From Callorhinchus milii (Eukaryota): a DNA stretch of 64,000 nt. The stretch covers positions 49,974,001 through 50,038,000 of the forward strand of contig NW_024704742.1 of assembly GCF_018977255.1 (NCBI RefSeq), in the 5' to 3' direction. Under the pieces are notes generated by a model. The model was not told the DNA's origin. It did not search any database and saw only the letters and a program-made list of their open reading frames with translations. The translations under genes were made by a program, and so were the position numbers. Positions 12,263 through 62,870 of the stretch are shown in pieces; positions within the stretch are counted from its first letter, which is position 1, and every line of letters begins with the position of its first letter.

Positions 12263-12509
12263 CAACAACCTGAGGCAAATTATACTTGTCCTCAGTAAAC
12301 ATTATCCAATGTAACCAACAAAATAAAACCTTATAACTATATTACAGCAGCACATCAAGTAACTACACATCAACTATCTACATGTCCATTTATCCCTGTG
12401 GTGAGTAAATGGAGTTGCAAAGTTGACAAAAAAAGTTTTCTGCATGTGTGTGTGATTACTTGGAGGGTGATTACTTGGAGCACCACAAGGTGGGTAAGTA
12501 CAAATTCAA

Positions 12510-12712
12510 AGCGAGAGACACACATGTGCACAAACACAGAGACAGTTAGAGTGGCAGAGAGAAAGATAACCACACACACACAGACAATTAGAAAGTTAGA
12601 GAGAAACGCACATGCACATTTATGCAGGCAGTTAGAGAGAAAGACACACAATGCAAATGCACAAAGACAGTTAGAGAATCAGAAGAGAGAGATACACACA
12701 CAAACACACAGA
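12510..12712. repeat. Degenerate (CA)n/(GA)n low-complexity repeat
   Basis: Recurring GACAGTTAGAGAGAAAGACACAC-like units. Confidence 0.75.
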
Positions 12713-13359
12713 TCTGATTTCTTAAATGTTTGTATATCTACTATGGGGCCTGTCCACATTAGTGCTAATATTGGGCATGGTGCACTATTACTAATGTTCC
12801 CTAGCAACTTTAACCTCTTGGGCAAAATCCTGTCAAATCGACAACATTCGTAAATTAACGATTTGCCTCAGGATGTATCAGGACTGTCAAAACACAATGA
12901 AGCAATTTTATGCAGAGAGGCTAAATTCACATTAACTGTGGAAATGTTAAAGACATTAAACAGCTCCGCACATCAGTTAAATAACTGTCAGAGAAAAAGC
13001 AATATATTAGCGTTTTTCCCCTCAGAACACAATTTCTACAACTTTGGAAATAGAAGTTGGAGAGGAACGGAAAATGTACTTAAAGTGCATATAAGAGCAG
13101 CTAATCATGATTCCTTTGACAATTTGGACAATATCCACACATTATTGACTGCATTAAATACAGTGTTATAGCAAATAACTTTACATCCATTATTAGTTCT
13201 GCTCCTTATAGACATAGCTTCAAGCAGAGCTCAACTTTTAACACCATTTTCACACATCTCGCAGGGGATTTCTTCCATTATTAGTAAAATTAAAACCAAG
13301 AAATATGATATTCATACATCATGCTAATGAGATGGGAAGAAACAGATCTATATTTCACA

Positions 13360-13915
13360 ATAACAACAAATTGCATTTATAGAGCGCCTTTCGTGTTGAG
13401 AGGACGTCCCATGGCTCTGCACAGTCGAGGGTTTGAACCCGAGCTAGAAGTTCGAATCAGCAGGAGTGGGGGTTAAGGGGAGGTGGGAGTGAGGTGAAAG
13501 ATGGCCAAAGGTACAGTCAAAGAGGAATGTCTTGAGACAGGCCTTGAAGGAGGCAGAGGGAAGAGGCAAGGCGAAGGGCCTCCAGGATGGACTTCTAGAA
13601 AGTGAGGGTAGAAAGCTGAAAGCACGACCACCGATGGTGGGGTAGACAGGGCGGTGGACATGAAGCAAACCTGTGCTGAGGGTGGGGGATGTGGAGCTAG
13701 TGGCGCTGGGTGTGTGAGAGGACACAAGCTGTAGAGTTCTGAATGGTCTGCAGCTTGAGGAGCAAAGATTTGGAGTAGTCAAGCTGAGACATGATGAAAG
13801 CGTGGAAAAGGGATTCAGGGGCCAAGGGGAGAGGTAGTGGCAGACGTGGCAATGTTGCAGAGGTAGCGGAAAGCTGAATGGGTCAAGGCATGGATTTGGG
13901 GTTTAAAGGACAGTT
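13360..13915 (-). mobile_element. L2 3' fragment
   Basis: PTIGGRAFS...SFKACLKTFLFD remnant and L2 tail. Confidence 0.8.
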
Positions 13916-13945
13916 GAAAGTTATATTTATGTGTAGTTGCAAAAG

Positions 13946-14310
13946 TGTCAACTTGGCTTAGTTGGCAGCACTCTCACCTCTGGGTCAAAAGGTTGTGGAT
14001 TCAAGCTCCATATCAGGATTTTGAGCTCACAATTAGGATGACCTTCAGCCTAGTGGAATGCTGCATTGCCCAAGTGCTTTCTTTTGGATGAGATGTTAAG
14101 ATGGAGTCATATGTGCCTGTTCAGGTGAAAGAACCCAAGACATACTGAATAAAATGTTTTTCTGGTCATCAATCCTCCACATAAATTGGTCATTAGCTTC
14201 GTGGCTGTTTGTGTGGATTGTTGTGTGCAAATTGGCTAACCATTTTCCTACTCAGGTACTGAATTTCACAATAAATACTGTGAAGCACTTTGAAACATTT
14301 TATGTATATT
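13946..14310 (+). mobile_element. Old DeuSINE-like element (SacSINE1/AmnSINE1-type core)
   Basis: Head GCAGCACTCTCACCTCTGGGTCA...GGTTGTGGATTCAAG; core TGCTGCATTG...TTTTGGATGAGATGTTAA...CCTGTTCAGGTG; 3' body shared with the young SINE. Confidence 0.7.
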
Positions 14311-16289
14311 GCCAGGGCACGTGTAATGCTGAGAGGAAGTTTGTTAATTCACATTATTAGGCCCACATCAGCAGCCTCCAATATCCGTAAAATAAAAGTC
14401 CTTTTGTTTTATACCTTATTAACAGACAAACTGCTTGTCACCGAAGCTACGCATCACTGAATCTGGAATCAATATAAATCTCCAAGCCTGAAACTACATC
14501 ACAGCCTCAAGCAGTCATATACTTTAAATACCTGGTAACAGCTGGAGAGCAGCTCAGCTCCGGGCCTGAGAGGAATAAATGTGCAAAAGCTTCACAAATT
14601 CCAATACAGTTCTATCAATCAGGATGTGCAGCATCTTATCCTCGAATCACAGCAGCATGGAGCCCAGACAAAGTTGGTTTCCTTTCCCATACTACTCCTT
14701 CCCGAGACCATTACCGTGGCAATGAAGGTGGTGAGGGTTAGAAATGAAAGATCTCCCCACTCTCAGGCATCACAGAATAAAGCAATAGATGTCTAATTCC
14801 CACGTTTTGTTATTTATGTTTGTCCTCTCTCTCAATACCATAATAATACTCTTTGTAATATAATATTACAATATAATATTGTAATTAATATTAATATTAT
14901 CATAATATCAGTTCTGAAACTTTAAAATGTCTCAAAACGTTTAACAAAGAGTTTCTATCAAGTGGAATGTCAGGAGCACTCTGAAGCCCCATCCCACCTG
15001 AAGGGTGCTATATAAATACAAGTTGTTATTATGTATGGATGGAGAGGTGGAAGGCCAAGCCAGTAGATCAGGTACCATGTTAATGCTGACTATGTAGTTG
15101 TAACTCGTGAAAGGCATGCTAGTGCTTGTCCCTGCATAATCATTTTCAATAGGATATCTCTACTTTGGTACTCAACCTTTCAAAAGTCATTCTCTTCTTT
15201 TTTTGCCATCTCACCACTGTCCCCTCACCATCTCCTCTTCAGTGGCAGTGATAGCACAAATAGCTTTAAGTTGCACGTCCCTGTCATCTTTGGCCTAACG
15301 GGGCAGGAAGAGAAGAAGGAAGAGCTCTGAGACACTAATCTGCGTGGAAGGTGCGAAATAAGTGCAAGTTGTTGTTGTTGAAGAGGCGATGACATCCTCC
15401 TCCCAGTGCAATCCGGGTTTATACAATCTCAGCCTTTATAGAATCCAGAAATCCCAAGATTCTCTTCAATATATCCTGGGATTTCGGAGCACCATTACCA
15501 ACCGGCAACCACTACATCCTTCTGAATGTTAAAGGTGCTGTACCAAATGGAAGGTTTATTATTATTATTATTATTGACAATCATGGTGCACAGTGTGTGA
15601 GTACTAATCTGGGATTAAAATTAAGGAGGGATCAAACCATGCTTGTATCCAGTCAATAATTTATGACTGTTTTTACTATAAGGCTAAAATCAATGTGATA
15701 AGTATGTGCCTTTTTTACCCTTAGATTTCAAGAAACGCATCCAAAAATAGAATCTGTTCAGAAATAGGTTGAACTTTATTATTAAAATATCACCCATTTT
15801 TATAGCTTTTGTTCTATTCTGTTATCGCCTTCACACTTTCATACTATTTGCGTCTGCTTCAGAAGCTTTGCAGGATCAGGCATGAGAAACAACATCTTCT
15901 GTAACTAGTGTTCAGCACAGCCTCATAAATCAACTAGCAGGAGGTGTACAACCATTTGATATGGGTAACCTATCCTCCTCTGTCAGCTTATCCCCAGGCA
16001 GTGATGTACCAGCACTAGCTGGGAAGGAACAGAAATCTTGCTTTCCTGACGCATAAATTCTGTAATTAAGAGGATATTACTATAGCCACATAAAAAAAGA
16101 AGTCTGGCAAGCTGCCAAGCAGCAGGAGGTTTATAGTATTTCTCTTTTTGTAGCTGTTGGAATCTAAGTAAACAGTTCAGATTTCATTTGACCCTTAAAG
16201 TGATAAATCTTTGAATATAGCCACTTCATTCTTTTTGTTTGATTTCTTTTTCATTTTATTTAGCCTTGCTTCATTAATTGAGATCATTG

Positions 16290-21200: not shown

Positions 21201-21739
21201 ATTTGATTCCAACAAACATAGGAATTAACTATTTTAAGAATGTGTAAAGAGAATGGAGTGTTGCATTCCATTAAACAAGTGTCTACTATATCTTAGTAAA
21301 ACAGCCTCTATTGCCATCTCATGCGGAAAGACTGAAAGGTCTTTCAGGGCAATGGGAAACATGCCTGCTGGTTTCATGTCAATATGTTGAGTAAATTGAC
21401 GGGAGAGGAAATCTGGTCTGTCAAGACTATCTGGTCAAATTGCCTAATAGTGTGTAATGTGGCCGTGTCAGAAGTCATCAGTTCTTCTGGATGCTACAAT
21501 GACAATTTTTCAGTGCCTCACAAAACAATCATGCCCTTGGTGTGTGGCATATTCAGTATTTCTTATAGTGGGTGATATGATTCCCTCAATTTTCTGTGGT
21601 AGACTCTCAGAACTGGCATGTCACAATCTAGAGGTCCACCAAAGGATTCTGGCTCAGCTGTGAGGTGCTCCTGTTGCTCAACAGCAGTCACCAGTATAAA
21701 TCTTGGATCCTGGATTTTGGGAAGCTGTACTTCAGTGCC

Positions 21740-22951
21740 CACATGAAACTGACCACCTGCTCCCTCAACCCCATCCCTAAACCCTCTCCTTATCTCCCAG
21801 CTCCATCTTTTTGCCCCTTTACTCACAGACATCATAAACTTCTCCCTGTCCACTGATACCATTCCCACTCCTTTAAAAATGGCTGTCATCACTCCTATCC
21901 TTAAGAAACTTTCCCTGGATCCATTCCTGCTCTCAAACTACCACCCCATCTCCAGCCTCTCTTTCCTCTCCAAGGTCCTGGAACAAGCTGTTGTTTCCCA
22001 GCTTCGCTCCTTCCTGTCTCGTCTCTCCCTTCACGAACCCCTCCAATTGGGTTTCCGGGCCGCCCACAGCATAGAAACAGCCCTGGTCAAAGTGACAAAT
22101 GATATTCTGTCCATCTGCGACCAGGGCTCCCTCTGCCTCCTCATCCTCCTTGACCTTTCTGCTGCCTTCGACACTGTTGACCACTCTATCCTCATCCACC
22201 ACCTCTCCTCTCACCTCAACCTTCACGGTTCTGTCCTTGAATGGTTCAGATCATCCTTTCACATCCACTCCACTTCATCTCCACAAACGTTTCTCCTCTA
22301 GCCCCTGCACCATCTTGTGTGGCGTTCCTCAGGGCTCTGTCCTTGGTCCCCTCCTCTTCAACATCTATATGCTCCCTCTTGGTGACATCATCCACATACA
22401 TGGGGCCAACTTCCACATGTATGCGGATGACACCCAACTGTATCTCTCTGCCTCCACCCTTGACTCCAGGACCACTGTAGACCAGACAGAATGTCTGTCA
22501 GACATCAAGTCTTGAATGAGAGCTAAGTTTCTTCAGTTGAACGTCAACAAGACTGAGGCTCTCCTGATTGGCTCCCGTCAGCGCCTCCACACTTCAGGCG
22601 CTGACAGCATCACCATCCATGGTTTCATACTCCACCTCACTGAGCCAGTCTGGAACCTTGGCATCTTGTTTGACCCTCAACTATCCTTTCTACCCCACAT
22701 CCATGCCATGACCTGCTCTGCCTTCCCCTACGTCCGCAACATCCCCCAGCTCCACCACTGTCTCACACCACAGGCCACCGAAACCCTCATACACACATTC
22801 ATAACATCGAGGCTTGACTATGCAAACTCTTTGCTTGTCGGCCTCCCCAAATCCTCCCTCCATAGGCTGCAGATAATCCAGAACTCTGCAGCCCGTGTCC
22901 TCTCGTGCACCAGGCGTTATACAAATATAATTTTGTTGTTGTTGTTGTTGT
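21740..22951 (+). mobile_element. L2-clade LINE RT fragment
   Basis: ORFs with [43 protein letters not shown] and SRLDYANSLL. Frameshifts and a stop are present. Ends in (TTG)n. Confidence 0.92.
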
Positions 22952-22979
22952 GCTGGAATCTTTTACTCCGATGTGTTTA

Positions 22980-23330
22980 ATAATAACAATCCTTGCATTT
23001 CATATTGTGCCTTGCACATTGGGAAGAAGTTTCAAAGTGCTTCACAGGCTTTTACTGTAAAGTGTAATTACTGTGTATTTCATAGGTGAACACAGCAGCC
23101 AATTTGGAGATTGTTGGCTGGGTCAGGTCATCAATATCCACCTGAACAGACAAACAGGAGCTCGATTTAAAGTCTCATATGAAGGACAGCAGAACAGCAC
23201 AGCCAATAATGCCGCACTTCTACACCTGAGAATCAATCAGTTTACACAGTGAGTTCAAAGTCCTGATGTGGACTTTGAATCGACAATCTTCTGAGGGGAG
23301 AATGCTACCATCTGAACTAGGCTGACACCA
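22980..23330 (-). mobile_element. Old DeuSINE-like element
   Basis: CCACCTGAACAGACAAAC...TTTAAAGTCTCAT core with head and tail remnants. Confidence 0.7.
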
Positions 23331-27750: not shown

Positions 27751-28238
27751 ATAGGTTCCATTGTAAGGCTATCAAGCATAGTTTCATGATGATGGTGTCC
27801 CTTTAAGATGACTGCCAGAGAGCTTGGTACTATGGTCCTCAAGCAAAACTCCTAATGAGTTTTGGCAGTGGTCAGTAAGGGGAAATATGCATAATTCATC
27901 TTTCATTGCAGTAAGTATACCTCCCACTAGCTGTTCCTAAAGCAGCATAGCACGGAGAACATGCAAAGGCATAACACAAAGCAGGCTCATTTTGCCCACT
28001 GGAAATACCACTGGGCAAAATCAAAATAAAATCAGAGGGGATTATTGAAATTTAAAAACTCAGGGACATTTTGAAGAGGTAAATTGTTCAGCTATTAGGG
28101 GTAAACATCAAATCCTTTATATCAAGCTGGTAGCAATTAATTTAATCTGACACTTATCAAAAATATTTTGTGTGATATTCAGTTTTGATATTACAAAACA
28201 GTGAATTTACTTCACATTTTGTCATGATTTGCTATCGT

Positions 28239-28607
28239 GGAGACTTGTAGCTCAGTGGTTACAGCTCTCGCCTCGCAAGCGAGAGACCTGGGTTCTATTC
28301 CCGGCAGGACGAAATATTGGGCAAGTTTCCTTACTCCACACGCCTCTGTTACCTAGCAGTAAATAGGAACCCGGTTTTTAGTCGATCGACAGATCACTTT
28401 TCTGGGGATAATAATCCCTCAAAAAATAATAATAATAATTTGGTCACTCTATTTGGTCACGACTGTTTGTGGGACACTGCTGTGCGTAATTGACTGCCGA
28501 GTTTCACCCACAAATACAGTCAATTCACTTTACAATATATTTTTTGAAGCACTTTGAAGTGATGAAGTGAAAAGCGCTATGTCAAATGCAAGGATTATTA
28601 TTATTAT
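28239..28607 (+). mobile_element. tRNA-Ala-derived SINE, long subfamily
   Basis: Full-length; anticodon arm CTCGC-CTCGCAA-GCGAG. Confidence 0.92.
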
Positions 28608-29608
28608 TTTTTATTTTATCCAACTCTTTGGTGATTTAGATGCCGGTATTGATCTCTGGTTCTCTGTGGTGTGAAGGGTTCAGGCTTCCTGGTAGATGAT
28701 TCAATGGTTAAGGTGAGGTATAGTGACGTTCCCTGCCATTCGTGACAATCAGTCTAAGAGGCAGACAGATTTGTCAATGTTTCGTAAAGGTATAGTGATT
28801 GAATTCAATTCTGCCATAATCATTTAGAAGAAGGCATGGGAAGTTTCAGATATCTGAATCCAAATTCTGTCAAACATAAATTGATTTTACACTTATTCAA
28901 TACATGAATTGGTGGTGAAACTTGTGAATATATTTACGGTTGCTATATTGAGATAACATATATACTGTATATTACAGTGAAGGTCAATGATATAAATGTA
29001 GAGCTACTAAATATATTTACTATCAGTTCTCTTAATGGTTATTGATTGCTGAGTCTATGCTTTTTCGACCTAAAAAAAGAATTACCAGAACACAGCCTCA
29101 TACTCAATCTTGGCATTTGAGAGCCTTTTTAACAAAAAAGCTATGCATAGAGTCATATTGTTCACCAGATTTCACTGAAATGGTCAGTTCAAGCATTATG
29201 AATTGAGGGTAATTGTAAATGATTGTGACACAGCACAGCCACATCTATTTGATTAGTAAATAAGGTGGAAATTCATTTCAAACCCTGTTTTCCACAACAG
29301 CTTTCTCAACATTGTTTAATTGTTCTGTGTGTTTCATTATGTCAGTATTACCTAGAGGTGTATATATTGGTGTCATGAGTCAGAATTTTGATGTAAAACC
29401 TGTGGGCGTCCAGGAACCAGACTAGAAACAAAACTGTCATATCTCTCAAAGAACACAGAGTGAGAGATGATAGACTCAAAATAAAGGAATTCTGTGTTGA
29501 TCCTGAAAAGTTGGCAACTGAACAGGCAAGATTAGATTTATGTATCATACTGAACCTGCATATTCACAGGACCATAATTTCCAAGTCATATTATTGCAGT
29601 TTGACCGA

Positions 29609-29891: not shown

Positions 29892-30749
29892 CAGTGTATG
29901 ATGGTCAGTTATCTTTATATCTTTGTCGTCCATTATGGCTACATTCTATGAAGGGTGTTAAGAATAATGACTGTATCAAGGAACCTTCATTCACAATGCA
30001 GATGTGAGCTGTTAGATACGTTGGACATCATTGAATGAAAGATACACTCAGGAAACTTCAAGCATCCCCGTCTGCCTCTGATAATACAGTGACTATCAGA
30101 AATGAAGATTCCAAGTCAGCATGTAATTGATGGCATATGTCACTGAGCACATCTTGCTAAGGTGAATATAACAGAATCTGTCAGTGCCAAATAGTTAGCT
30201 TTTGACTTGTTAATTCTCTGACAAGAATAATTCCTTGTATGCCAGGGTCTCATTCACCTATTTCTGTTGTTACAAACAATGTGGCATTATTGCTGCACAA
30301 GTAACACAGTTAAAGGAACCAATGTCAGTATTTAAACCTATATGAATGGTAATCTATAGTGCTGTGAAGAATGAAGCAGCCCTGGAAGAGTAGACCATTC
30401 ACAGCTTGACTGCAGCAAATGAACATTATAGTTTTGACTAAACCTAAATCACGACTCGGTATTTGCAATGAGCCAATGGAAGCAGGATTCAAAGCAGCTG
30501 TGACCTTCACAGCTACAGGTCAAACAGTTCCAGTGAGAGGGCAGACCTTTGAATCATCTCTTAACCTTTGACAAAGTTCAGTAATTGCTTCACTTGACCT
30601 CCCTTAGGAATATCTTCATTACTTCCATGTATGGGTTTTGGGTTTAAAACATTCTCCTTAGGAAATTGATGGCATCCCTGGTGCCTTGCCACTGGTAAAA
30701 ATACTTCACAGCATATACTGCAATCCCAGAAGTGTACTCCAAGTACATT

Positions 30750-31063
30750 GGAGTCCTGTAGCTCAGTGGTTAGAGCACTCGCCTTGCAAGCGAGACACCT
30801 GGGTTCAATTCCAGGAAGGGTGAAACCTTGGGCAAGTTTCCTTATTCCACACGCCTAATAATAATCCCTCCAAAAAAAAATAATAAAATAAATTGGTCAT
30901 TTTCAATCCACGACTGTTTGTGGGACACTGGTGTGCGCAATTGGCTGCTGCGTTTCGCCCACAGATATGCGGTCAATTCACTTTACAGTCTATTCTGTGA
31001 AGCGCTTTGAGACGTCTAGAAGACGTGAAAAGAGCTACATCAAATGCAAGGATTATTATTATT
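30750..31063 (+). mobile_element. tRNA-Ala-derived SINE, short subfamily
   Basis: Full-length; AAGTACA occurs on both flanks (possible TSD, offset by 2 nt). Confidence 0.93.
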
Positions 31064-32414
31064 AAGTACAACACACCGTTTTACAAGATCTTGAGATAGA
31101 GTTGAGATTTCTCAGTTCAGCAGGATGTTTCCCTTCTGGAGAAGCAATTTATATTGTGAGACTCATTTCCAGGGTTGATATACCGTGAGACACAAGTAAC
31201 ATTATTGCTTTCCTAAAGAGCAAGTGTTTGCCCAGAAAATATACAGTCAATCCATTTTACATTATATTCTGTGAAGCGCTTTGAGACATCTAGACAACAT
31301 GATAAGGTGCTATATCAAATGCAAGGATTATTATTATTATTATAATTCAACCCCATTCTGAGCTTGAAGAACCTCTCCGTCAGATACAGTTCTCTCCTTC
31401 ATATCTTGTGTACCCGCAGATCCTATTCATACTGTTCCTCATCTAAATGGATGATAGCAGCTACAACTTAAGCAGTGTTGCTTGCAATCCATTTATCCAG
31501 CGAACAGTAACTCTGAAGTGATCTATATATGGGTGCAGGTCATTTAAGTGATGAGAAACTGCAGTGAGGTCTGCTTTACTTAAGTGTCTCTTCCCTCAAG
31601 TTTAGTTAACTTAATTCACTTCACAACAGGTTTGCAAATCTGTTAAGTATCGATGCCATAATTCTGTGTTGGAAACTGGGAACCTCCATCACACACAATA
31701 TGAACACATACTGCTATTTCTGGGTGGCATAAGGTATTATATTATAAGATATTAGATACATAAGAATCACTCAAACACCCCACCACCAACATCTCATCAG
31801 ATAACAATTACTAGGATACACCAGGAAAAGACACTAGGACGTAGGACAGGCATAATGCTACTTAGTGACTGGAAAATGGGGTAGGAGTTCAACTCAACAT
31901 TAAAGATGATCAGGTGAAAATTGCAACATGTTTTCCACAGTTCTAAAAAAGAGCCAGCTTCCAAATTAAGACTAAATTTAGGAATTTTACCCAATGCTGC
32001 ATGATCTTAAAAATTGAAGACAAAATGGTCTTACGGTGTAAGGCTAGGTGGAATTTTTGGTCCCCGATGTGTTAATTAACGCACTGTTGACAAAAATGAC
32101 TATTCAATGTGTTAGTTATTGACTGCTCATACATATACTGGAGAGAGAATTCTTCGGCAGACACAATGTTTAAAATGATTGCACTAAGTTGTAAGCATTG
32201 AACTTCTAGCTGACCGAGCTTGGTCTGTTAGAGGTTATTGGCTTAATATACATAAATTCAGTTCAGCTGGTATCCTAAATGGTAGTGCAATGTGGTGATC
32301 CATAATGTGGAAGTCAAAATAACAGCACAGCTAGCTTCTGGGTGGCAATCATTGCCAACAATGTCAGGAGTGGGGAAGAGTCCAGCTCATGTTTGGACCA
32401 GTTAATGTCCAACA

Positions 32415-32789
32415 TAATAATAATTCCTACATTTGACATAGCGCCTTATCACATCTTCGAGACGTCTCAAAGCTTTACAGGATATACTGTAAAGTGAATT
32501 GACTGTATATTTTGTGGGTGAAACATGGCAGACAATTGTGCACAGCAGTGTCCCACAAATAGTTGTGGATTGAGTGACAAATTTATTGTTATTATTTTTT
32601 ATGAAGGAATTATTAACCCCCAGAAAAGCGATCCACCATTCGTCTAACAACCGGGTTCCTACTTACTGCTACGTAAACAGAGGTGTGTGTGGAGTAAGGA
32701 AACTTACGCAATGTATCACCCTGCTGGGAATCAAACCCAGGTCTCTCGCTTGTGAGGCGAGTGCTCTAACCATTGAGCTACAGGACTCC
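32415..32789 (-). mobile_element. tRNA-Ala-derived SINE, long subfamily
   Basis: Full-length match. Confidence 0.92.
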
Positions 32790-34194
32790 ACATGATGTTA
32801 ACCAGCACCAGCGGAATTTATTAACATCAAACTTGACAATTTTAACTGCATTATAGAATCTTTATAGAATAAATTGTAATCACAAGCCACTGATGACCTG
32901 ATGATTTAGTTTAAAAAAGGCAGAAATGTTTCCCACAGTGCATATTTTGTTTATTTACAGCTCCTGCATAGATTGCATTAGAAGCTCGCTAATAATAACA
33001 CACTAACAAAGCAAAAAAATGAACCTGAGAATCAAGTTGTTATATCCGTGGAAATAGAGACAACCTAATTGAGCTTTCATCAGTCACGTGTTTTTTTTGA
33101 GGATAGCGTTGCTCATTTATTAGAGGTGTGAATCATTATTTAGAATTCTCTACCAAAGCTTAAAGCTACAGTACCCACAATTATAGTTGTTCAGTTCCAA
33201 ACAATATTGAGTTTAATAGATACAATATTGGACCAAATCTCATGTCATAGTTGCTACATAAGCTTGCCTTGAAGAACATGCTCAGGAACCTGTCCTTGGA
33301 CAGTATCCAGTCTGCCAAACAATGTGCTCCAACGCAAATACATTTTTGGAGTTTCCAGTCCAAGAATTTCCCTTCTTCCCTCTCCCCTTCACTCTCCTCT
33401 ACCCACCCCCCAACCCCCCACCTCCCTCACTCCCTCCCTCCCTCACCCCTCCTTGATCATTGCCAATTCTTTGGTTGGTCTTTGATAAATGTGCAAACTG
33501 CTCACTCCTTCAATCTTCTTGACACTGTTCTCACCCTGGTCTTTGAGTTACATCCTGCCAATATCCCAAATTGTACTGAGATCTGTTTCCTTAATTATCA
33601 CTTTCCCCATGTTTCTTTTTTATTTAAGGAATTCCTGTTCCATTTGTACCTTTTCACACTTCTATGTAAACCAGAATTTAATTGTTAAACTATTACATGG
33701 GATCTACAAATCTTCAGTAATGAGCTTGGCAATGGACCAAGTTATGAAACTTTTGAGTGGCAGTTCTGGGGATACGAGTTTAATTCCGATACCTCAGGAG
33801 TTGTTATTGTTACATAATGATCACATCTTACAATTGTCACCCAAATATGATTTTTCGTTAAAAAAATCTGTAATGTCGTCAAGTAAAAAAGTAAAGTAAA
33901 GTAACAAAATCAGAGTTTAAAATATTGATACAAACCTTCAATGAAGTAATATAAAATGTTTTAATAGAAGGACAGCCCTTCTGAGTACTGCAATTAAATA
34001 TTTTTTCAGGTTTCATGTTCACATCCCAGGAGAGGTGGAAGCAGTCACACTGTGAAGACTTCATACAATTAGTTTTATCTGATTTAATCAGATCTAATCG
34101 GACCGCAGCTGACGTAGCCTTCAAGAATCTCTAATGAAAAGCATCCCCACATGTGTAAAAGTTTCTGAAATTCTATTAATATTACTAATAGAAA

Positions 34195-35098: not shown

Positions 35099-36638
35099 TA
35101 AACCAACTTCCCTGTGAACCTTCGAGCAGGGAAGGATAATGATTAAGAATGAAATCCCTGGTTAGTATCCCACACCCCTGATCAAGGAGTGATGAGGACA
35201 AATGTAGAGCTCCAAAGGATGAGATCAAATAACTCAACACAGATCATTTATGTATTGTCCATGACTACACCAGCTCTTAGAATAATTTAAAATGTTACCT
35301 TTATAACTCAATTGTAGCTGCACTGTTTTTAAAATCCTTTCTTTAATGGGTTCTGCAATTTGTTGCAAAATGTCAAGCTGCAAATGTCAAAATGGAAATC
35401 AATGGCAACATTCCATCTGCCTAACCTGTCAAGTAATGTAAGAAAACAAACTTATGCATCATGTTATTTTATCAAATAAAATTTTGCATCATTGTTAGAT
35501 GGTCTTGGATTCTTAATGGATTTTGGGCTTTTGGGTCAAGTATCCATAAAACAGAAGAACTTCCCTGTATACATCTGCCAGGACTGTTATCAAACAGGGA
35601 ACATTATCCATTGCACATACACAGGTAAATCAGTACTTGACGTTAGAGTGCTATGGTAAGAAGATGGAGACTGTTGATGACTAGATGCCCTTCACTGGGC
35701 TTCCAACAGCCAGAGATTCTTTTAAAATGTAAGGATAAACATAAACCCTATGACTTTATGCTGTGGCTTCTGCCATAAATACCTGCTCTCCCACTACAAC
35801 CTATACACAACCTTTTTTTTCACAAGGGGCATGATAATGTGAATCTAATATTTTTATAATTAGGAAAAATTATATATTTGTAGAATTAACATCTGTCTTT
35901 AACCCTGTTCACATCATATTCCGAGTTATTGACCATTGCAAATGTCGACAATTGATTACAACAACAACTTGTACTTATATAGTATCTTTCACATTGGAAA
36001 AGGTCTCACCTTCCTTCACAAAAAGGGAGTGGGAGCCCAAGGAGGATGGGAAATGAAGGTGGGAGGGAGGTGACCAAAGGTTCAGTGAGAGTAGTAGGTT
36101 GTATAGATAGAGTTTAAAAGCAGAGAGTGGCGGGGAGTTCCAATGATTTGTTTTTTGATGTTGAATTCTCAAATTCTTTGAAAACATGAACTTCTACTAA
36201 AGTACATCAGTAAAAAATTGCAAGCATGTGCTTCTGCATTTCTGTTGGAGGAGTTCTGCTCCGATAGTCACACTTGAAGGGAGACTGAACCTTGCTCTCA
36301 TGATTTTGAGAAAAAAATTAAAGTACAAGTTGTCAAATACTTATTGTAGTCACAAATAAATTAAAACAAATAAGCAATTTAAATGTAATACCCAGTGAAG
36401 AACTACAGTAAATGTGCCCATTGTTTATTCCATTTACACAAAGCAATATCAATATTTTTATTCACACTGAGACTTCAGTCAAAGCAATAAGCACAAAATG
36501 AGAAACAATTATATAATATCAATTCCTTTAGAATTTAGTTTTCTGATTGCTAATGGAACATTGGGATTTATAATACTAATAAGTAGTTAGCAGGGTTGTG
36601 GAACACATTCCTGTGGGTAATCTTTTGATCTTGTTGTT

Positions 36639-37263
36639 TGTTAGAAAATAAAATCAGCTAAATCTGCAAGGAAATAATGCTAATTCCTCTAACCAGATAT
36701 CAGACTGTTTTATTATAATTTGTTCGTTAATCCCCAATATCCCGATGGGTCAGACCAAAGGCTGGTACAATCAACAGATCTTATAACAGAATAACACCAC
36801 TATAGATATCTCGAGTTCAAGAGTTCAACACTGTGTCTTTCCAGCACACAAGCTTGACTCTTCATGCTTTCAGACTTCTTGCTTACAGCTTTCAATCTTC
36901 CATCTGATATCCTCAGTCTTCGTGTTTCCAGCTCTCAGTCTTCCATCTCTGTATCCTTGTCTCCGCGACCCGGGACGGCTCCATCTCCCGTACACAAAGT
37001 TATCGGAACTTTTATACCAATATTCATCCAATCATGGTGCGGACATTAGATCACCTGTCGAAATCATGCTGGGTTCACGTGAACACCTCATGGGGTGTAC
37101 GTGCCTCACACACACAAACACACTGTCCTTGAGACAGTCCGTTATCTCGTGTACGTGCAGGGAGTTTCAGTCCAGCTGCCCACAACACACTTAACTTAAA
37201 AGTTAACCCGTTCGCAACATCTATTTTGATTCCAACATTATACAAAAAGTGTAAATTCTAACA
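36639..37263 (-). repeat. 3' LTR (625 bp)
   Basis: Direct repeat of 38146-38836. Preceded on the minus strand by purine-rich AAGATGGGGAC. Minus-strand TATAAAA near 37010-37016 and AATAAA near 36710. Confidence 0.93.
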
Positions 37264-38122
37264 GTCCCCATCTTGATACCGAATGAACATGAGGTATCAC
37301 AAAATTACAAAAAGAATATAATACAAAATCAGAAAAATAATACAAGGTTACACAACCTGATAGTACAAGAAGACAGATAATACAAAGTCAGAAAAATAGT
37401 ACAAGGTCACACAACCTGGGAGGGAGGATGGTACTTCCAGGAGGCAAACTCTCTTAATGAGCTTTCTCTCGGGTTTCACAGCTCAGTCAAAACCAACAGG
37501 TTATTTCCAGCGACCACAGTCACAATTGAAATCAACATTCAATTACTATCAGTCCTGGTCCCTCTCCTTACCCGGAGGTAATAGGGGATTTGCTTCCCTC
37601 AGTTTGGACTGACTTATTTCACAGCTCAGTTGTAACCAACAGGTTATTTCCAGCGACCACAGTCACAATTGAAATACAACACATTCAATTACTGTCGGCC
37701 TCGGTCCCTCTCCTTACCCGGAGGTAATAGGGGATTTCCCACTGATTGTTTGAACGCCCGAAAGTTACTCCATCACTTACGCAATTTCCACATCGACACA
37801 CAATATATCAACATATTCGAATGTCGTTCACACGCACATCAGCGCACTTAAATGCCTGGTGCGATCGCCAGCGTACTCAAACGCCTGACCGTTATCGAAG
37901 CTTGGTCCCGACTATACCTTAGTGTGGCATCCACAGCTTACTCAAAACTACTGTCCTCTACTTGATGTATTCAAACATTCAAGGAGACAATCACAAACTT
38001 CCTAGGTAATATAGTCAAATATTCAGCTTTAAAAACAATCAGACATTGATGTATTCAAACATGCAACATCATTAAACGTTCGTCAAGGTTTGATTGTACC
38101 TCCCTTGTCTGTTTACTGGGGA

Positions 38123-38141
38123 AATCCTGCCGACTACGCCA
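38123..38141 (-). promoter_or_regulatory. Primer-binding site for tRNA-Ser
   Basis: Minus strand TGGCGTAGTCGGCAGGATT, 4 nt after the 5' LTR. It is complementary to the 3' end ...AATCCTGCCGACTACG-CCA of vertebrate tRNA-Ser(AGA/TGA). Confidence 0.9.
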
Positions 38142-38145
38142 AAAC

Positions 38146-38836
38146 TGTTAGAAAATAAAATCAGCCAAATCTGCAAGGAAATAACGCTAATTCCTCTAAC
38201 CAGATATCAGACTGTTTTATTATAATTCATTTGTTATTCCCCAATATCCCGATGGGTCAGACCAAAGGCTGGTACAATCAACAGATCTTATAACAGAATA
38301 ACACCACTATAGATATCTCGAGTTCAAGAGTTCAACACTGTGTCTTTCCAGCACACAAGCTTGATTCTTCATGCTTTCAGTCTTCTTGCTTACAGCTTTC
38401 AATCTTCCATCTGATATCCTCAGTCTTAGTGTTTCCAGCTCTCAGTCTTCCATCTCCGTACGCTTGTCTCCGCAGCCCGGGATGGCCCAATCTCCCGTAT
38501 CCTTGTCTCCGCGACCCGGGACGGCTCCATCTCCCGTATCCTTGTCTCCGCGACCCGGGACGGCTCCATCTCCCGTACACAAAGTTATTGGAACTCTTAT
38601 ACCAATATTCATCCAATCATGGTGCGGACATTAGATCACCTGTCGAAATCATGCTGGGTTCACGTGAACACCTCATGGGGTGTACGTGCCTCACACACAC
38701 AAACACACTGTCCGTTATCTCGTGTACATGCAGGGAGTTTCAGTCCAGCTGCCCACAACACACTTAACTTAAAAGTTAACCCGTTCGCAACATCTATTTT
38801 GATTCCAACATTATACAAAAAGTGTAAATTCTAACA
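38146..38836 (-). repeat. 5' LTR (691 bp)
   Basis: Direct repeat of 36639-37263; adjacent to the PBS; carries three copies of a 39-bp unit. Confidence 0.93.
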
Positions 38837-39877
38837 TGTTACATCTTTGTAATAAAATATCTTATTGTGAACTTATAATGGAAAATTTGTTATTTTTATT
38901 TTAAATAAAAGGATCTAAATATTGAGCTATGAAAACTAAAAAATTGTGACTAATTCAACATAGACTTAATGGGCTGAATGGCTGCTTTTTGTGTGTAACA
39001 TATTATAATAGAAAATTTGTTGTTCTCAAGGCATTCATACCTACTCTTCCAAAATTAGTGTAAAATTTTTGAAATGTCAAAGGAGCAAACAGGCCAAGTT
39101 AACTCGTTAAAACCTAGTTAAAATAATAATCTCTGTATTTGATATAGTGCGGTATCGTTGAAACACCTCAAAGCACTTCACAGGATTTATTGTAAAGTGT
39201 AGTGGCTTTGTACTTGAAAGCAAAGCCACAAATATGCACATAGCAATGTCACACACCAGCTATAAACGGAATAACCAATAAAACTCTTTAACAAGGAAAT
39301 TTCTTAATATTACACAATTGAGGAGGCTTGTTGACAAAGGAATCATTTGCACCATGATAATTCTTGCATTAAATCCGGCACTAAAATTAGCCGCTAGTTA
39401 CCATGCAAATCCTGTCATTCCTGAATCATACAAAGCGGCTTTTTCCAACCTGTGTGTTTTGTGTGTGACGTTTGTTGGGGGGATATGTGTAAGTATTCCT
39501 ACCAGGGTTATTTTAATCCAATGGACCATATTCAAATAACAAACCATTTTTTAAGAAAGCTGCAGTGTTCTTGGATATAATTAAACAATTTAAATCAAAC
39601 ACAGCATATCTTTTGATCTTAGCCTTAAGACCCATGTCTTAAAATTTACAGTCAAATAGGATTTTGGAAAATTCATAAATTCAATACAGCACAATACAAG
39701 TTACATTCATATAGTGCATTTTACAGCAAGAGGACATCACAAATTTAGTTTTGATATGGAAGCTGCTTCCTGCATTTCACAGAAATCAGATACTTATTGA
39801 TTGAATATCTCAGATCATTGGAGATCATCTTGCACCTTACCATTTTCAGCAGTAATTACGATGCACCATAATGAATA

Positions 39878-43350: not shown

Positions 43351-43365
43351 GTGAAGTACTCGTGT

Positions 43366-43689
43366 GGAGTCCTGTAGCTCAGTGGTTAGAGCACTCGCTT
43401 TGCAAGTGAGAGACCTGAGTTCAATTCCAGGCACAGGGCGAAACCTTGGGCAAGTTTCCTTACTCCACACAGAGCCTAATAATAATCCCTCCAAAACCAA
43501 AAACAATAATAAATTGGTCATTTTCAATCTACGACTGTTTGTGGGACATTGCTGTGCGCAATTGGCTGCCGCGTTAGCCCACAAATATACAGTCAATTCA
43601 CTTTACAGTGTGTTCTGTGAAGCGCTTTGGGACGTCCTCTCGACGTGAAAAGCGCTATATCAAATGCAAGGATTATTATTATTATTATT
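43366..43689 (+). mobile_element. tRNA-Ala-derived SINE, short subfamily
   Basis: Full-length; closest to the 6855 copy. Confidence 0.93.
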
Positions 43690-44279
43690 AAGGTCCTGGC
43701 TGCCTGTTTAGGCGGGAGTTAAAAATCCTATGGCACTACACAAAAGAGAAGGACATTTCTCCCAGTGTCCTAGGGAACAAATTCCCAGATACAATTGTTT
43801 TTTCACTTCATGGCTGTTTGTCCGACATTGCTGTGTGTAAAGTGGCTGCTGCGTTTGCCTATAAATTTGACACAGTCACTACACTACACAGTAAATCTGT
43901 GAAGCACTTTGAAACATCCTCCTGACGTGAAAGGCACTATACCAACTGTAAGGATAATTCCTGTTTTTCTTTGTTGAGTGACAAAAATACAATAACAATA
44001 ATCCTTGTTTTTGATGTAGTGCCTCATCATATCGTCAAGACGTCTCAAAGCGCTTCACAGAATATATTGCAAAATGGATTGACTGTGTATTTGTGGGCGA
44101 CATAACAACAAGATGTTGCATGATGTACATCATCTAATAAAAGCTACTTTACTACTGTATTTCCCAATTGCCAATAGCTCAAGGCTAACATGACTGACAT
44201 TTGGAAGAAGAACCTATAAACCTAAGATAGATTGGATACTCCAGATTTATTTTCCTTCACTAGGTTGTGAACACTGTAA

Positions 44280-52220: not shown

Positions 52221-54036
52221 TTTGGATTTTTTACACAATACAGTACGCCAAACGTTTCATTACTTTTATTTCATTTCAATGATGATCCAAAGTGTTATTG
52301 ACAGCTTTTATTTACACCGAAATTCCCTCACCCAAAACCTCTTTGCAATTTCAGTTTGTCTCATAATCTTATACAAAGGGGTCAAGCAAACCTAATGCCA
52401 TTTTCACAGTAATTGTTAGTTTGTACCCAAAATATCTCTTTTAGCAATATTTTATCATAACAGGAAGATCACAAACCATGTTTACATCATAACATGGTAA
52501 CAGTTTATTCGAGCGCTTTTCTACAAGTAATTCCAAATATGCAAGCATTTAAGGCAATTTAATTAACTGTGTGATCGATGATTTAAAAAAATTCAGGTGA
52601 CCCTGAAGCTCCCCTCATATATTACAAATTAAAATTACTCAAATACCAGGAGGAGTATCTAAACTCAAGTGTAACATGTGTGAACTATATAATAAAAATC
52701 CTTGCATTTTCTATAGCGGTCAACTGTATAATTAAAAATATCTGTATATCTGTTTGTACATGATTAGTCAGTGTGCTATTAGCCCAACTATTAGACCCCA
52801 AAATGCTACCATACATTCTTCAAAAGACGAGGGATTTCTAATGGAGCTTTACAATTGTTTAATAGAGAGTATTGGCTGAAGTGTACTTCACCAGACAATG
52901 TCCACTTTTCTTTCTTTCCTCCCCCAAGTAGCACCTTCTCATTGTTTAATCGCACCTTGGGCAAGAACTAACCAAGGTTTCCTATCCTCAGGCTGGTGAA
53001 TTTGTTGGTCAAAAATGAGATGCTTCAAGTTCCATTTTAAAGATATTTGATGCCGATCCTGTCTGAAAAGAACTGCAAAACCTCAAAGTGAAATAAAGGC
53101 TATAAGATGCTAAATAGCAGGCGGAAATAATATGTCGTTGATTCAGAAATGGAAGGCTATTACATTGCTCACTATTAGTCTCAATGCTTCCAGTTCTGTG
53201 AATTCTGAGCTAAAGCAGAAGGTCTTGTCTATGTGTATTTGGGGTGAAAATATAAACATGATATAGTATACAGTTCCAATCTTGTATTCTGTACAGTCAG
53301 ATTGCATTGCTTTTGTTACTGCTCTAAGATATGATAAACAGTACATTAGAATATACAGCACAGAAACAGGCTATTCAGCCCAACTGGTCTATGCCGGTGT
53401 TTATGCTCCACATGAGCCTCCTCCTGTCCTTCCACAACTAAGCCTTCAAGCACAACCTTCTATTCCTTTCTCCCTCATGTACCTATCTAGCTTTCCCTTA
53501 AATACATCTATGCTATTTGCCTCAACAACTCCTTGTGGTAGCATGTTCCACATTCCCACTACTCTTCGTGTGAAGAAATTTCTTCTAACTTCCCTATTGG
53601 ATCTATTTGTGACTATTTTATATTGATGGCTCCTGGTTTTGGTCTCCCCCACAAGTGGAAACACCTTCCCTATGTCTACCCTATCAAAACCTTTCATAAT
53701 TGTAAAGACTTCTATCAAGTCACCCCTTATCCTCCTCTTTTCAAGAGAAAAGAGTCCAAGCATGTTCAGCCTTTCCTGATAGGTATAACCTCTCAGTTCT
53801 GGGATCATCCTTGTGAATCTCCTTTGCACCCTCCCCAGTGCCTCTACATCTCTTCTATAATGTGGGGACCAGAACTGCACACAGTATTTTAAGTGTGGTC
53901 TAACTAAAGTTCTATAGCAGTTGACCATAACTTCCCTGCTTTTCATTTCTACCCCTCTAGAAATGAGCCCCGATGTCTGGTTTGCCTTTTTTATGGCCTT
54001 ATTAATCTGCGTTGCTACTTTTAGTGAAATGTGTAT

Positions 54037-54508
54037 CCTCATCCTCACCTACAAGGCCATTCACGGCCTTGCTCCCTCCTACCTCTCCAACCTACTATCC
54101 CCCTACCTACCTGCCCGTACCCTCCGTTCCTCTGGCTCCGGTCTGCTCCACGTCCCCGCCCCAACCGCCCTACTATCGGTGGTCGGGCCTTCAGCCTCTC
54201 AGCCCCGAGGCTCTGGAACTCCATCCCCCAGTGCCTTCGCCTTGCTTCCTCCCTTTCCTCCTTCAAGGCCGGTCTCAAAACCTTTCTCTTTGACCGTGCC
54301 TTCAGCTCCCCTCTCGACTCTCTTCCTCCTCGCCCTCCCTTCCCTCCCCTCACCCTGACCATTTCCCCCTCCTCTCTCCCTCCCTTCCCTCCCCTCAACC
54401 TGACCATTTCCCCCCTGCTCGGGTCATGACCCAACTGTGCAGCGCCTTGGGACGTCCTCCTGACGTGAAAGGCGCTCTATAAATGGAATCTTGTTGTTGT
54501 TGTTGTTG
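54037..54508 (+). mobile_element. Young L2 3' end inserted in the CR1
   Basis: ILTYKAIHGLAPSYLSNLL and GGRAFSLSAPRLWNS remnants, (TTG)n tail, flanked by 8-bp TSD ATGTGTAT. Confidence 0.92.
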
Positions 54509-55399
54509 ATGTGTATGTGTAGGTCCCTTTGCTCTTCTACCCCATTTAGTTTTTTATTTTCCAGGATGTATGTGACTTCCTTATTCCTTCTAGCAAAATG
54601 TATCACCTCACATTTTTCTACATTGAAATGCATTTGCCATTTAAAGGCCCACTCAGCAAGTTTATTAATGTCTTGCTGAAATTTGTTGCAGTACTCCTCT
54701 GTATTAACTACTCCCCCCAATTTGGTGTCGCCTGCAAATTTTGAAATTGTACTGCTGATTTCCAGGTCCAAATCATTAATGTATATTGTGAACAACAGTG
54801 GTCCCAATACCGATCCTTGTGGAACACACTGCTCACCCCTTGCCAGTCTGAGTAGCTATCCTTTACTCCTACTCTCTGTTTTCTGTTTTGCAGCCAGCTT
54901 GCTATCCATTCTGCTATTTTCCCCCTGACTCCACATGCTCTGACCTTATTCATTAGTTTATTATGTGGTACCTTATCGAACGCCTTTTGGAAATCTAAAT
55001 ATATTACATCTACGACAACAACAAGATTACATTTGTATAACACCTTTCACTACTGCATTACCCTTGTCTACTCTTTCCGTTATCCCTTCAAAGAATTCAA
55101 TGCGGTTGGTCAAGCATGACCTTTCTTTTTGAAATCTATGCTGACTATTGTTTATTATGTTTTCTGTTTCTAGATGATTTTCTATTACCTCCTTCAGTAA
55201 GGATTCCATTATCTTTCCTACCACCGATGTTAAGCTGACAGGTCTATAGTTCCCTGGGTTTGTTCTATCTCCCTTTTTAAATATAGGTATAGCATTAGCT
55301 ATCCTCCAGTCCTCTGGTACTACTTCCTTTTCTAATGAATTATTATATATGTGTAATAGTGCCTCTGCTATCTCTTCCCTCGATTCTTTTAATATACCC

Positions 55400-55710
55400 G
55401 GAGTCCTGTAGCTCAGTGGTTAGAGCACTCGCTTTGCAAGCGAGAGACCTGGGTTCAATTCCCAGCAGGGCGAAACCTGGGGCAAGTTTCCTAACTCCAC
55501 ACGCCTGATAATAATCCCTCAAAAGAAAACAATAATAAATTGGTCATTTCAATCCACGACTATTTGTGGGACACTGCTGTGCGCAATTGGCAGCCGCATT
55601 TCGCCCACAAATACACAGCCAATTCACTTTACAGTCTATTCTGTGAAGTGCTTTGAGACATCTAGAAGACGTGAAAAGCGCTATGTCAAATGCAAGACTT
55701 ATTATTATTA
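55400..55710 (+). mobile_element. tRNA-Ala-derived SINE, short subfamily, nested in the CR1
   Basis: Full-length; interrupts CR1 ORF2 at the PGPDG-like motif. Confidence 0.93.
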
Positions 55711-56920
55711 TCTGGACCAGGGGTTTTATCCTCTCTGAGTTTCGTTAGTTTTTCGATTATATCTCCCTTTGTATCTTAAATGTATTTATATTATTTTCGA
55801 TCTCTTCTACTGTCATGTCCACCTAATCCATCTCCTTGGTGAATACTGAGGCAAAGTAATTATTTAATATTTCTGCCGTTTCACTGTCGTGGCCTGTGAG
55901 CTTATCTTGTCCATCCCTTAGTGGCCCTATTCCTATTTTGATTTTTCTTTTGTCACTTATATGTCTGTAGAATATTTTACTATTTCTTTTTATATTCTGT
56001 GATAATTTAATTTCATAATTCCTCTTTGCCTTCCTAATTGTTTTTTTTGATTATTTTCCTGACCTCTTCATATTTTTTTTTGTCATGCTCTCCCTTGTTA
56101 TTTATGTACTTGGTGAACGCCTCTTTCCTGAGTTTCAACTTTCCCCTTATGTCTTCATGTCTTCCTTATTCCATGATGTCTCATTACTATTTAGCTTTGT
56201 CTTGCTTTTTAGCAGAATATATTTTTCCTGGGCTCTATTGATCACTGTTTTAAATGTTTCCATTGCTGTTCTATCTCTTTGTTTGCCAATATTGTTTTCC
56301 AGTTTATTTTCCCAAGTTCCATTCTCATCCCCTCAAAATCAGCTTTTCTCCAATCTATTACCCTGATCTTTGTCAAACTCATTTCCTTCTCAATCTTTAT
56401 CTTAAACCTTATTAAGTTATGATCGCTATCTCAGCAACATGGAAATAAACTAATTAAGTGATATATCAGTCAATGTCAGACTACAGTGGCACACACAACT
56501 GAGCATTGTTTTCAGGTCTGAAGAAGGCACTCATAATGGAGCGGATTATTTTATGCCTGAATATTGCATACTGTTCAGGCAGTATGGACCAGAGGAATCT
56601 AAGCCTAGAGGATCCTATGGCAAATTACCTCTTCTCAATAATAACGTAACTGCCCTTAGGATCAACAATGTGGGAGCCTGCTAAGTCATAAAGTTACTCC
56701 GAAAAAGCCTTGATGGATGAGGTGGGTGGGGAGGTAGAGCCCTCTTCCCTCAGGACTGGAACATTTCCTGTAGGCCAGGGAGTAGGGCTGGTAAGACCAC
56801 AGCCCAGGAACAGAGCTTTAGATTCATTGTAATGTAGGCAGTATTTATCCTATAATCTTTGCATTTGGTATAGTGCCCTCAAAAATGATCAGCAATGAAA
56901 AACAAATTTAAGGAACTAAC

Positions 56921-61117: not shown

Positions 61118-62870
61118 CAAAAACAAGATTACATTTGTAAGGCGCCTTTCACGTTGGGAGAACGTCCCAAGGCAATGGACAGTGTACAGCATTTCAGACC
61201 CGAGCTGGGGTCAGGGAGGGAGAAGGGAGGGGAGGGGGAGGTGGGTGACTGATGGCATGGTCGAAGAGAAGGGTCTTGTGGTGAGACTTGAAGGAGGCTA
61301 AGGAGGGGGCGAGGTGGAGTGATTGTGGGGATGGAATTCCAGAGGTTGGGGGCAGAGTGGCTGAAGGCTCTCCCGCCAATGGTGGGGCGGGTGGGTTGGG
61401 GCACGTGGAGAGGCCAGAGCTGGCCCAGCGGAGGAAGAGGGCGGGTTGGTAGGGGGTTAGGAGGTCGCAGAAGTAGGGTGGGGCGAAGCCATGGAGGGCT
61501 TTGTAGGTGAGGACAAGGATCTTGAAATGGATCCTCTGAAGGATAGAGAGCCAATGGAGTCGGGTGAGAATGTGGGAGATGGGGTCACGGAGTTTGGTGC
61601 AGGAGAGGACACGGGCTGCAGAGTTCTGGATTATCTGCAGCCTGTGGAGGGAGGAGTTGGGAAGGCCGACAAGTAGGGGGTTTGCATAGTCGAGCCTGGA
61701 GGTGATGAAGGCATGAACAAGAGTTTCAGTGGCCTGAGGGGTGAGGTAGTGGCTGAGTCAGGCGATGTTACGGAGGTGAGGGAAGGCAGAGCAGGTCATG
61801 GCTTGGATATGGGGAAGAAAAGACAGTTGAAGGTCGAACAAAACACCTGGGTTCCTGACTGGCTTGGTGAGTTGAAGAGTTCAACCAGAGCCTGAGGTGC
61901 TGAGGCGCTGGCGTGAGCTAATCAGGAGGGCCTCAGTCTTGTTCACATTCAACTGTAGGAACTTTGCTCTCATCCAGGACTTGATGTCTGACAGATAGTC
62001 TGTCAGGACAGCAGTGGTTCTGGAGTTGAGGGTGGAGGCAGAAAGATAGAGTTGGGTGTCATCCGCATACATGTGGAAGTTGACCCCATGTCCTCGGATG
62101 ATGTCGCCAAGGGGAAGCATCTAGATATTAAAGAGGAGAGGGCCAAGGCAGAGCCCTGGGGGATGCCAGACGTGACAGTGTGGGGACTGGAGGAGAAACA
62201 GTTAGAGGCCACAAAGTGGAGACGGTGAGAGAGATAGGAATCAAACCAGGTCCGCGGAGATTAAGTAACGAGGAGAGGAGGTGTATGAGGATGGAGTGGT
62301 CGACAGTGTCGAAGGTGGCAGAGAGGTCGAGAAGAACAAGGAGGCAGAGGGAGCCCTGATCACAGATGTTCAGAATGTCATTAGTGACTTTGACCAGAGC
62401 TGTTTCCATGCTGTGGGCAGTGTGGAAGCCGGAATTGGACAGGTTCAAAGAGGGAATGGTGAGAGAGAAAGGAGAGGAGCTGGGACGTGACGATTCATTC
62501 CAGGACCTTGGAGAGGAATGGGAGGTTAGAGATGGGGTGGTAGCTGGAGAGTAGGGATGGGTCCAGGGAAGGTTTTTTCATGATGCGGGTGATGACGGCT
62601 GTTTTCAGGGGGGTGGGAACTGAGCCGGTGGAGAAGGAGAGGCTGATGATGTCGGCCAGGAGAGGGGCCAGAAGGTGGAGCTGGGTGGTGAGGAGAGAGG
62701 TGGGGATGGGATCGAGGGAGCAGGTGGTGGGTTTGAGTTTGCGAACAATCGTGGTGAGGGAGGAGGGAGAGATAGAGTCGAAGGAATATAGGGGGGGATG
62801 GGTGGCGGGTGGGTCATGAGGGAGAGGTGATGTGGGAGTGGCGGTGGACAGGGCAGAGTGGCTGAACGTA
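61118..62870 (-). mobile_element. L2-clade LINE, 5'-truncated, RT to 3' tail
   Basis: Motifs [15 protein letters not shown] and [10 protein letters not shown]. Tail GGGACGTTCTCCCAACGTGAAAGGCGCCTTACAAATGTAATCTTG. Same family as 21740-22951. Confidence 0.92.

Follow-up and report, generated by a model that had tools for sequence, protein, structure and literature searches.

A gene-less LTR element of Callorhinchus milii related to the endogenous retroviruses of CmiERV lineage I

Which virus gave rise to an element that carries two complete LTRs and every priming signal but no retroviral gene, and by what route could such an element have spread? The question is raised by a locus in a stretch of 64,000 nucleotides from Callorhinchus milii (contig NW_024704742.1), and this whole stretch is called the window below.

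Structure and divergence of the element

Sequence analysis confirmed an intact gene-less LTR element of 2,198 bp on the minus strand (36639-38836), and no further copy was found in the 64-kb window. All the structural marks of a non-autonomous LTR element are intact: paired LTRs, primer site (PBS), PPT, terminal dinucleotides and target duplication (TSD). The 5′ LTR (38146-38836, 691 bp) and the 3′ LTR (36639-37263, 625 bp) carry the same 8-bp terminal inverted repeat and enclose an interior of 882 bp (37264-38145), all on the minus strand. Exact 4-bp copies of the target, to which no strand is assigned, lie on both sides (36635-36638 and 38837-38840); flank composition gives a chance of p ~0.006 for such a 4-mer match, and a duplication of 5 or 6 bp was ruled out because the match does not extend past 4 bp. 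The PPT (37264-37274) adjoins the 3′ LTR, and the 19-nt PBS (38123-38141) lies 4 nt from the 5′ LTR. This PBS was the sole match in the window when up to two mismatches were allowed, and searches of shuffled sequence gave a match in 0 of 100 shuffles. When read as the reverse complement, 18 of its letters coincide with the 3′ terminus of a tRNA-Ser(AGA) gene, which was taken from metagenome locus L111 rather than from the host itself, and the 19th letter also matches, as expected of a primer of the tRNA-Ser (AGA/TGA) type. A first-pass annotation of this DNA, made from its letters alone, had named the paired LTRs with their 8-bp repeats, the 4-bp TSD, the tRNA-Ser primer site and the PPT, and all four were borne out, the primer site by complementarity, uniqueness in the window and the shuffles.

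The same primer site was sought in other collections. Viral contigs gave no match, and metagenome contigs gave at least 115 matching stretches; among the matches listed, 0 of 114 loci resembled the element beyond the primer site. At five metagenome loci (L004, L008, L013, L075 and L077) the PBS is followed by reading frames of 1,325-1,442 aa, and these are probably LTR retrotransposons of other eukaryotes. Since the PBS precedes long frames in unrelated contigs, the primer site alone cannot classify the element.

The element holds 32 stop-to-stop frames of at least 40 aa, none of which is a retroviral ORF, and the longest (157 aa) lies inside an LTR. A Pfam scan of six of the 32 frames gave no match at the curated cut-off; two weak matches below it were taken as chance. 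The annotation's description of an 882-bp interior with no retroviral ORF therefore stood as regards ORFs, but the interior does keep one coding remnant, namely the last ten codons of env and their stop (37407-37439). It also contains a duplicated unit of 143-146 bp and a 59-bp tandem pair. The leader folded better than all 20 of its shuffles (z -2.9), a result too weak to name a structure, and the nine Rfam matches in the window all lay outside the element.

Comparison of the two LTRs gave 13 substitutions, ten of them transitions, over 613 aligned sites (2.1%), in agreement with the dozen or so (about 2%) estimated by eye in the annotation, which however did not list two indels. One of these is 78 bp, reflecting three copies of a 39-mer in the 5′ LTR versus one in the 3′ LTR; the other is 12 bp, near 37122-37133, where the 3′ LTR is the longer. 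In the 5′ LTR we located inverted CCAAT motifs at 38617 and 38606, a TATA-like box at 38601, the 39-mer array at 38449-38577 and a polyadenylation hexamer at 38221, an arrangement that would correspond to a U3 of about 260 bp, an R starting near the 39-mer array and a short U5. CpG dinucleotides are retained, as the annotation had said, with an observed/expected ratio of 0.76 versus 0.18-0.46 in 27 other 2.2-kb tiles (a 28th tile, lying mostly within the element, gave 0.70); yet, judged from their sequence contexts, seven of the 13 differences between the LTRs have the form expected from CpG deamination. The four differences within 36721-36730 raised the possibility of gene conversion, which was set aside, three of them being of this type.

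The element had been called young, which appears doubtful. The Kimura distance between its LTRs is 0.0216, close to the LTR distances of 0.024 and 0.033 in published CmiERV proviruses, for which Han 2015 assumed a rate and obtained ages of 54.5 and 75 My (PMC4422223). At that rate, 2.2e-10 per site per year, the LTR pair would be 49 My old (26-82), and at the rate measured in the epaulette shark, given as 7e-10 per generation in the available portion of its report (PMC10587355), its age by our own arithmetic would be about 15 million generations; neither of these rates is the host's. CpG-type changes make up seven of the 13, so that both ages are probably inflated, by as much as half. Furthermore, LTR divergence is 3-4 times the allelic difference in the flank (0.5-0.6%), or about twice that difference when CpG-type sites are left out. 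The term young thus holds only relative to the LINEs of the host.

Relation to CmiERV lineage I

CmiERV lineage I is an endogenous retrovirus of C. milii that was grouped with snakehead retrovirus in the Pol tree of Han 2015 (PMC4422223). A motif search of the supplement to that paper matched the element to the provirus on scaffold 2 of lineage I, with exact matches on both sides of what proved to be a deletion junction, and three of the six window motifs searched (the 39-mer and two from the middle of the leader) were absent from the supplement. Comparison by eye with the scaffold 2 provirus showed 74 of 78 letters identical at the start of the LTR, complete identity over the last 15 LTR letters and the PBS, and a common U3 block of about 75 nt. 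The correspondence extends through the 3′ end of the interior: over 37264-37440, comprising env tail, 3′ untranslated region and PPT, 166 of 175 letters agree with one 2-nt gap. Here the PPT holds the same position with two letters different, the T-rich 3′ untranslated region (37275-37406), which includes the 59-bp tandem duplication, is colinear with the stretch following env, and the env remnant (37407-37440) was recognized from its translation, from the frame traced by eye from the published env immunosuppressive domain and from an exact 15-nt motif match. On the leader side, the 3′ part (37447-37737) consists of the two copies of the 143-146 bp unit, a candidate packaging signal, and its end (37447-37608) is identical at 155 of 162 letters; about 27 nt of the 5′ part of the leader (38073-38122) are also common to the two. 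About 7.3 kb of the published provirus, holding gag, pol and nearly all of env, lies between these sides, and in its place the element has six letters that belong to neither side (37441-37446). Overall, the two share LTR termini, colinear LTR blocks, tRNA-Ser PBS, duplicated leader unit, env tail, 3′ untranslated region and PPT at about 95% identity, and their LTR-LTR divergence is similar (0.033 for scaffold 2, PMC4422223, and 0.022 here), whereas the provirus measures 9,560 bp with gag, pol and env and the element 2,198 bp without genes.

The two nevertheless differ within the shared frame. The scaffold 2 LTR is about 830 bp long; it includes a U3 block of some 350 nt that the element lacks, and it has no 39-mer; conversely, the 39-mer array and a leader segment of about 330 bp (the leader middle, 37738-38072, both of whose searched motifs were missing from the supplement) occur in the element only. 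A 28-bp imperfect palindrome was also observed in U3 (37065-37092 and 38650-38677), and the block that holds it is conserved with the published provirus despite the differing U3 around it. Judged by its sequence, the element belongs to the CmiERV lineage I group, but to a different LTR subfamily from scaffold 2; its placement within the retroviruses is that of the parent in Han's Pol tree, the element itself being without pol. Because the middles of both LTR and leader differ, the scaffold 2 provirus is best regarded as a relative of the helper rather than as the helper or the direct source, and no coding copy with the LTR subtype of the element was seen.

The annotation had left the helper unidentified and had considered class I or Gypsy affinities; both points change with this comparison. 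The lineage was published in 2015 as a relative of snakehead retrovirus, and the parent is a gag-pol-env retrovirus. The parent belongs to lineage I (SnRV-like) and not to the epsilon-like lineages II and III of Han 2015; its Pol is thus not of the gamma- or epsilon-type that marks ERV1, nor is its RT of Gypsy type. The TSD has the 4 bp of ERV1 and not the 5 bp of ERV-S and XtERV-S. In the accessible text of Chong 2014, TSDs are given as 4 bp for ERV1 and 5 bp for ERV3 and ERV4, with the qualification that they are not consistent within classes, and relatives of SnRV are unclassified (PMC4299795). For lineage I our data give a TSD length of 4 bp, from one site.

Han 2015 described three long CmiERV proviruses, found by requiring pol and env, together with "many short fragments", and no deleted two-LTR family (PMC4422223). 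A screen of this kind is blind to gene-less families, and the clade of snakehead retroviruses is poorly classified, according to the part of Chong 2014 available (PMC4299795). We found no description of a gene-less CmiERV family in a literature search beyond whose bounds lay most subscription journals and Repbase Reports. The parent is already published, and the gene-less form adds to a familiar kind of genomic parasite within a little-studied virus lineage.

Copies of the deletion junction and origin of the gene-less form

All 24 runs listed bear a single species label, the four best with 886-963 million letters of contigs. Contigs of four runs were aligned in 30 bins on 35640-38145, which covers the left flank, the 3′ LTR and the interior. 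Two runs, X1 and X4, have contigs in every one of the 30 bins and behave like DNA; the other two, X5 and X8, we guessed to be RNA. Summed contig depth is no copy number, and its ratios are to be read as orders of magnitude. The unique left flank had a depth of 7.2 in X1 and 11.3 in X4, compared to 6,894-11,348 and 9,230-14,369 in the seven bins wholly within the LTR and 225-613 and 254-653 in the ten interior bins. Expressed as multiples of the flank, the median point depth was 638 (X1) and 720 (X4) for the LTR (8/15 LTR rows among the matches listed) and 28 (X1) and 23 (X4) for the interior (13/19 interior places among the matches listed, leaving out six listed places with depths of 260-593). 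The LTR is thus some 25-30 fold commoner than the interior, which suggests that most LTRs are solo or flank other interiors.

The deletion junction itself is present in more than one copy. The bin that holds it showed no drop in depth (325 in X1 and 300 in X4), and a contig of 137 letters from X4 (record 14) runs from 37370 to 37506 without a gap, crossing the junction with 71 and 60 letters on either side. This contig differs from the window at five letters and has a depth of 81.5, or 7.2 times the flank, and so represents other copies, several of which share the junction. Among the matches listed, it is the one piece of 32 that crosses by a 31-letter rule; two pieces from the presumed RNA runs (X5 record 20 and X8 record 26) reach across it by 22 and 26 letters on the shorter side, no X1 piece does so although the X1 bin shows no drop, and no piece spans the whole element. 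We estimate that about 7 or more copies, perhaps 20-30, carry the junction. The first-pass annotation had proposed a non-coding LTR element with all its cis signals and had named a single occurrence of the interior as one observation that would speak against it; by the rough measure of contig depth, interior and junction alike are multi-copy, and the deleted form has probably been amplified as a non-autonomous subfamily.

The leader middle is likewise multi-copy, and at least six different joints between 37616 and 38124 indicate a family with several leader length variants. One of these, joining 37616 to 38073 at a depth of 22.4 (twice the flank), occurs in X4 and is the only sign of a leader of the published type. 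Separately, an 857-letter contig of X8 (record 27) matches one leader unit only (37501-37593) and continues for 660 unlike letters downstream, making it a candidate coding relative.

The flank, by contrast with the interior, is at single-copy depth, so that the copy in the window is a separate integration. At five positions (36717, 36763, 37022, 37226 and 37233) its two LTRs share a letter where most of the family depth reads otherwise, which fits their descent from a single reverse transcription better than the joining of two solo LTRs. Moreover, X4 record 8 covers the flank and 20 letters of the LTR and shows, relative to the window, six other letters among 1,017 and an insertion of 56 letters; since this haplotype enters the LTR, the integration is shared with another haplotype. 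The 56-letter insertion, at 35799, is present in X1 and X4 and absent from the window, and the left flank also holds a short high-copy repeat (about 35958-35994, within 35892-36059).

We consider it likely that the element is a deletion derivative of lineage I that spread in trans, by means of the Gag and Pol of coding relatives, as a non-autonomous subfamily. A provirus of the group would have lost nearly its whole coding region by one deletion that joined the end of the leader to the last env codons, leaving the LTR promoter, polyadenylation signal, tRNA-Ser PBS, duplicated leader unit, PPT and integrase-recognized ends. Following general retrovirology, RNA would be transcribed from the 5′ LTR (TATA-like box at 38601, hexamer at 38221) and packaged through the leader, in which the duplicated unit is the likely packaging signal; tRNA-Ser and the PPT would then prime the first and the plus strand, and Gag and Pol of coding lineage members would carry out reverse transcription and integration, giving rise to a small non-autonomous subfamily. 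The window copy would stem from one such integration with a 4-bp staggered cut, and is now probably fixed, methylated and slowly decaying.

Alternatively, a deleted provirus might have multiplied at the DNA level, through segmental or tandem duplication or through gene conversion of copies already present. Proviruses of XtERV-S are reported to have been duplicated locally (PMC8278194), and among the copies that bear the junction the flank has been seen for the window copy alone. Duplication of this kind is nevertheless unlikely here, given the single-copy depth of the flank in both X1 and X4, the intact TSD and a junction contig whose five differences in 137 letters exceed the divergence of the LTR pair. 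Distinctly unlikely as well is a deletion, one-off or recurrent, of full-length proviruses after integration, with the depth of the interior contributed by full-length relatives. Such relatives would raise the depth on both sides of the junction, and X8 record 27 continues in unlike sequence as a coding relative would; in addition, by eye the published provirus has the same four letters at the point where the leader breaks off and some 20 nt upstream of the break in env, which could favor recurrence. However, a gapless contig at seven times the depth of the flank spans this very junction, the junction bin does not drop, and recurrent deletions are not expected to yield the same six letters. 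An origin as a non-autonomous Gypsy-type retrotransposon or class I ERV is highly improbable: although the 4-bp TSD is typical of ERV1 in the accessible part of Chong 2014 (PMC4299795) and long ORFs follow the same PBS in unrelated metagenome contigs, the leader and the 3′ end share about 95% identity with a gag-pol-env provirus grouped with snakehead retrovirus (PMC4422223), and the likeness of the listed metagenome loci stops at the primer site. A spliced RNA was also considered as the source of the junction; a donor-like motif lies near the leader breakpoint of the published provirus, but by eye no AG acceptor precedes the env breakpoint, and this reading gained no support.

Parallels, transcription and genomic setting

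Mobilization of an element that keeps its cis signals and loses its coding capacity by a related autonomous element is known from VL30 and ETn of the mouse, from MaLR and from zebrafish BHIKHARI. The parents of these families are of gamma-, beta- or ERV-L-type, BHIKHARI and MaLR keep or have gained an ORF, and copy numbers are often higher. In its mode of spread the C. milii element resembles passengers of the VL30, ETn and MaLR type. TRIMs, too, are non-coding and have paired terminal repeats, PBS, PPT and TSD, with short repeats, a length usually below 1 kb and no known parent, whereas the LTRs of the present element exceed 600 bp and its retroviral parent can be traced.

Among published elements, the nearest counterpart is the set of deleted XtERV-S copies, Xt-S4 to Xt-S22, in Xenopus tropicalis (Yedavalli 2021, PMC8278194), described here from the available part of that paper. 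These are 19 two-LTR copies, 11 of which are structurally alike, in which the 5′ part of the LTR is replaced relative to that of the coding virus; more than 140 solo LTRs are reported, many of them of the altered type, and ages reach about 25 My. As in our element, two LTRs, a tRNA-Ser PBS, the leader and the PPT are kept. In contrast, the XtERV-S copies have a parent with class III (ERV-L-like) gag-pol, a 5-bp TSD and usually a retained gag 5′ end, and belong to another host class and virus lineage.

The two presumed RNA runs, X5 and X8, extend over the LTR and the greater part of the interior and leave the unique flank uncovered. In X5 the depth rises to 180,774 in bin 36900-36983, immediately downstream of the TATA-like box in the 3′ LTR and equivalent to the 39-mer region of the 5′ LTR, compared to 8,958 and 16,946 in the adjoining bins, a 10-20 fold excess. 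This peak possibly reflects the start of transcription or strong expression of an LTR-derived RNA and is to be taken as a lead, contigs showing neither starts, strand nor level and X5 reads being able to stem from any LTR copy.

Nothing here overturns known biology. Lineage I would have spread also in the form of a deleted subfamily and through numerous LTR-only copies. A review of which part was available gives 100-700 ERV insertions for the genomes of elephant shark, coelacanth and lamprey (PMC4977317); depth suggests several hundred LTR copies for one family as against this total, and ERV content may thus be undercounted. More tentatively, and with considerable doubt on our part, the gene-less form might have outbred its coding parent, its LTR subtype having seeded most of several hundred to a thousand LTR copies and being still strongly transcribed from just behind the TATA box. 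If so, the snakehead-retrovirus clade would gain its first described non-autonomous family, a natural deletion would mark the minimal cis signals of the clade (the duplicated leader unit and the 4-bp target cut), and cartilaginous fishes would have their own equivalent of promoter-donating LTR families such as MaLR or MT2.

The surrounding window is repeat-rich DNA of vertebrate type, with nine tRNA-like SINE heads recognized by Rfam and fragments of LINEs. The SINE family is about 320 bp long, with a tRNA-Ala-like head and an ATT-repeat tail, and its best pairs are 86-97% alike; copies lie at 1327-1650, 2519-2874, 5953-6274, 6851-7176, 28235-28615, 30745-31064, 32408-32795, 43360-43692 and 55400-55711, together with shorter pieces. 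Their heads, which Rfam and ARAGORN report as tRNAs, are probably not genuine tRNA genes. A LINE fragment at 53446-55419, which we take to be CR1-like, gave no Pfam match over 53449-54048. A further LINE fragment, at 21563-22980, matches reverse transcriptase (E 1.4e-12) and is 77.5% like 61129-62887, in inverted orientation.
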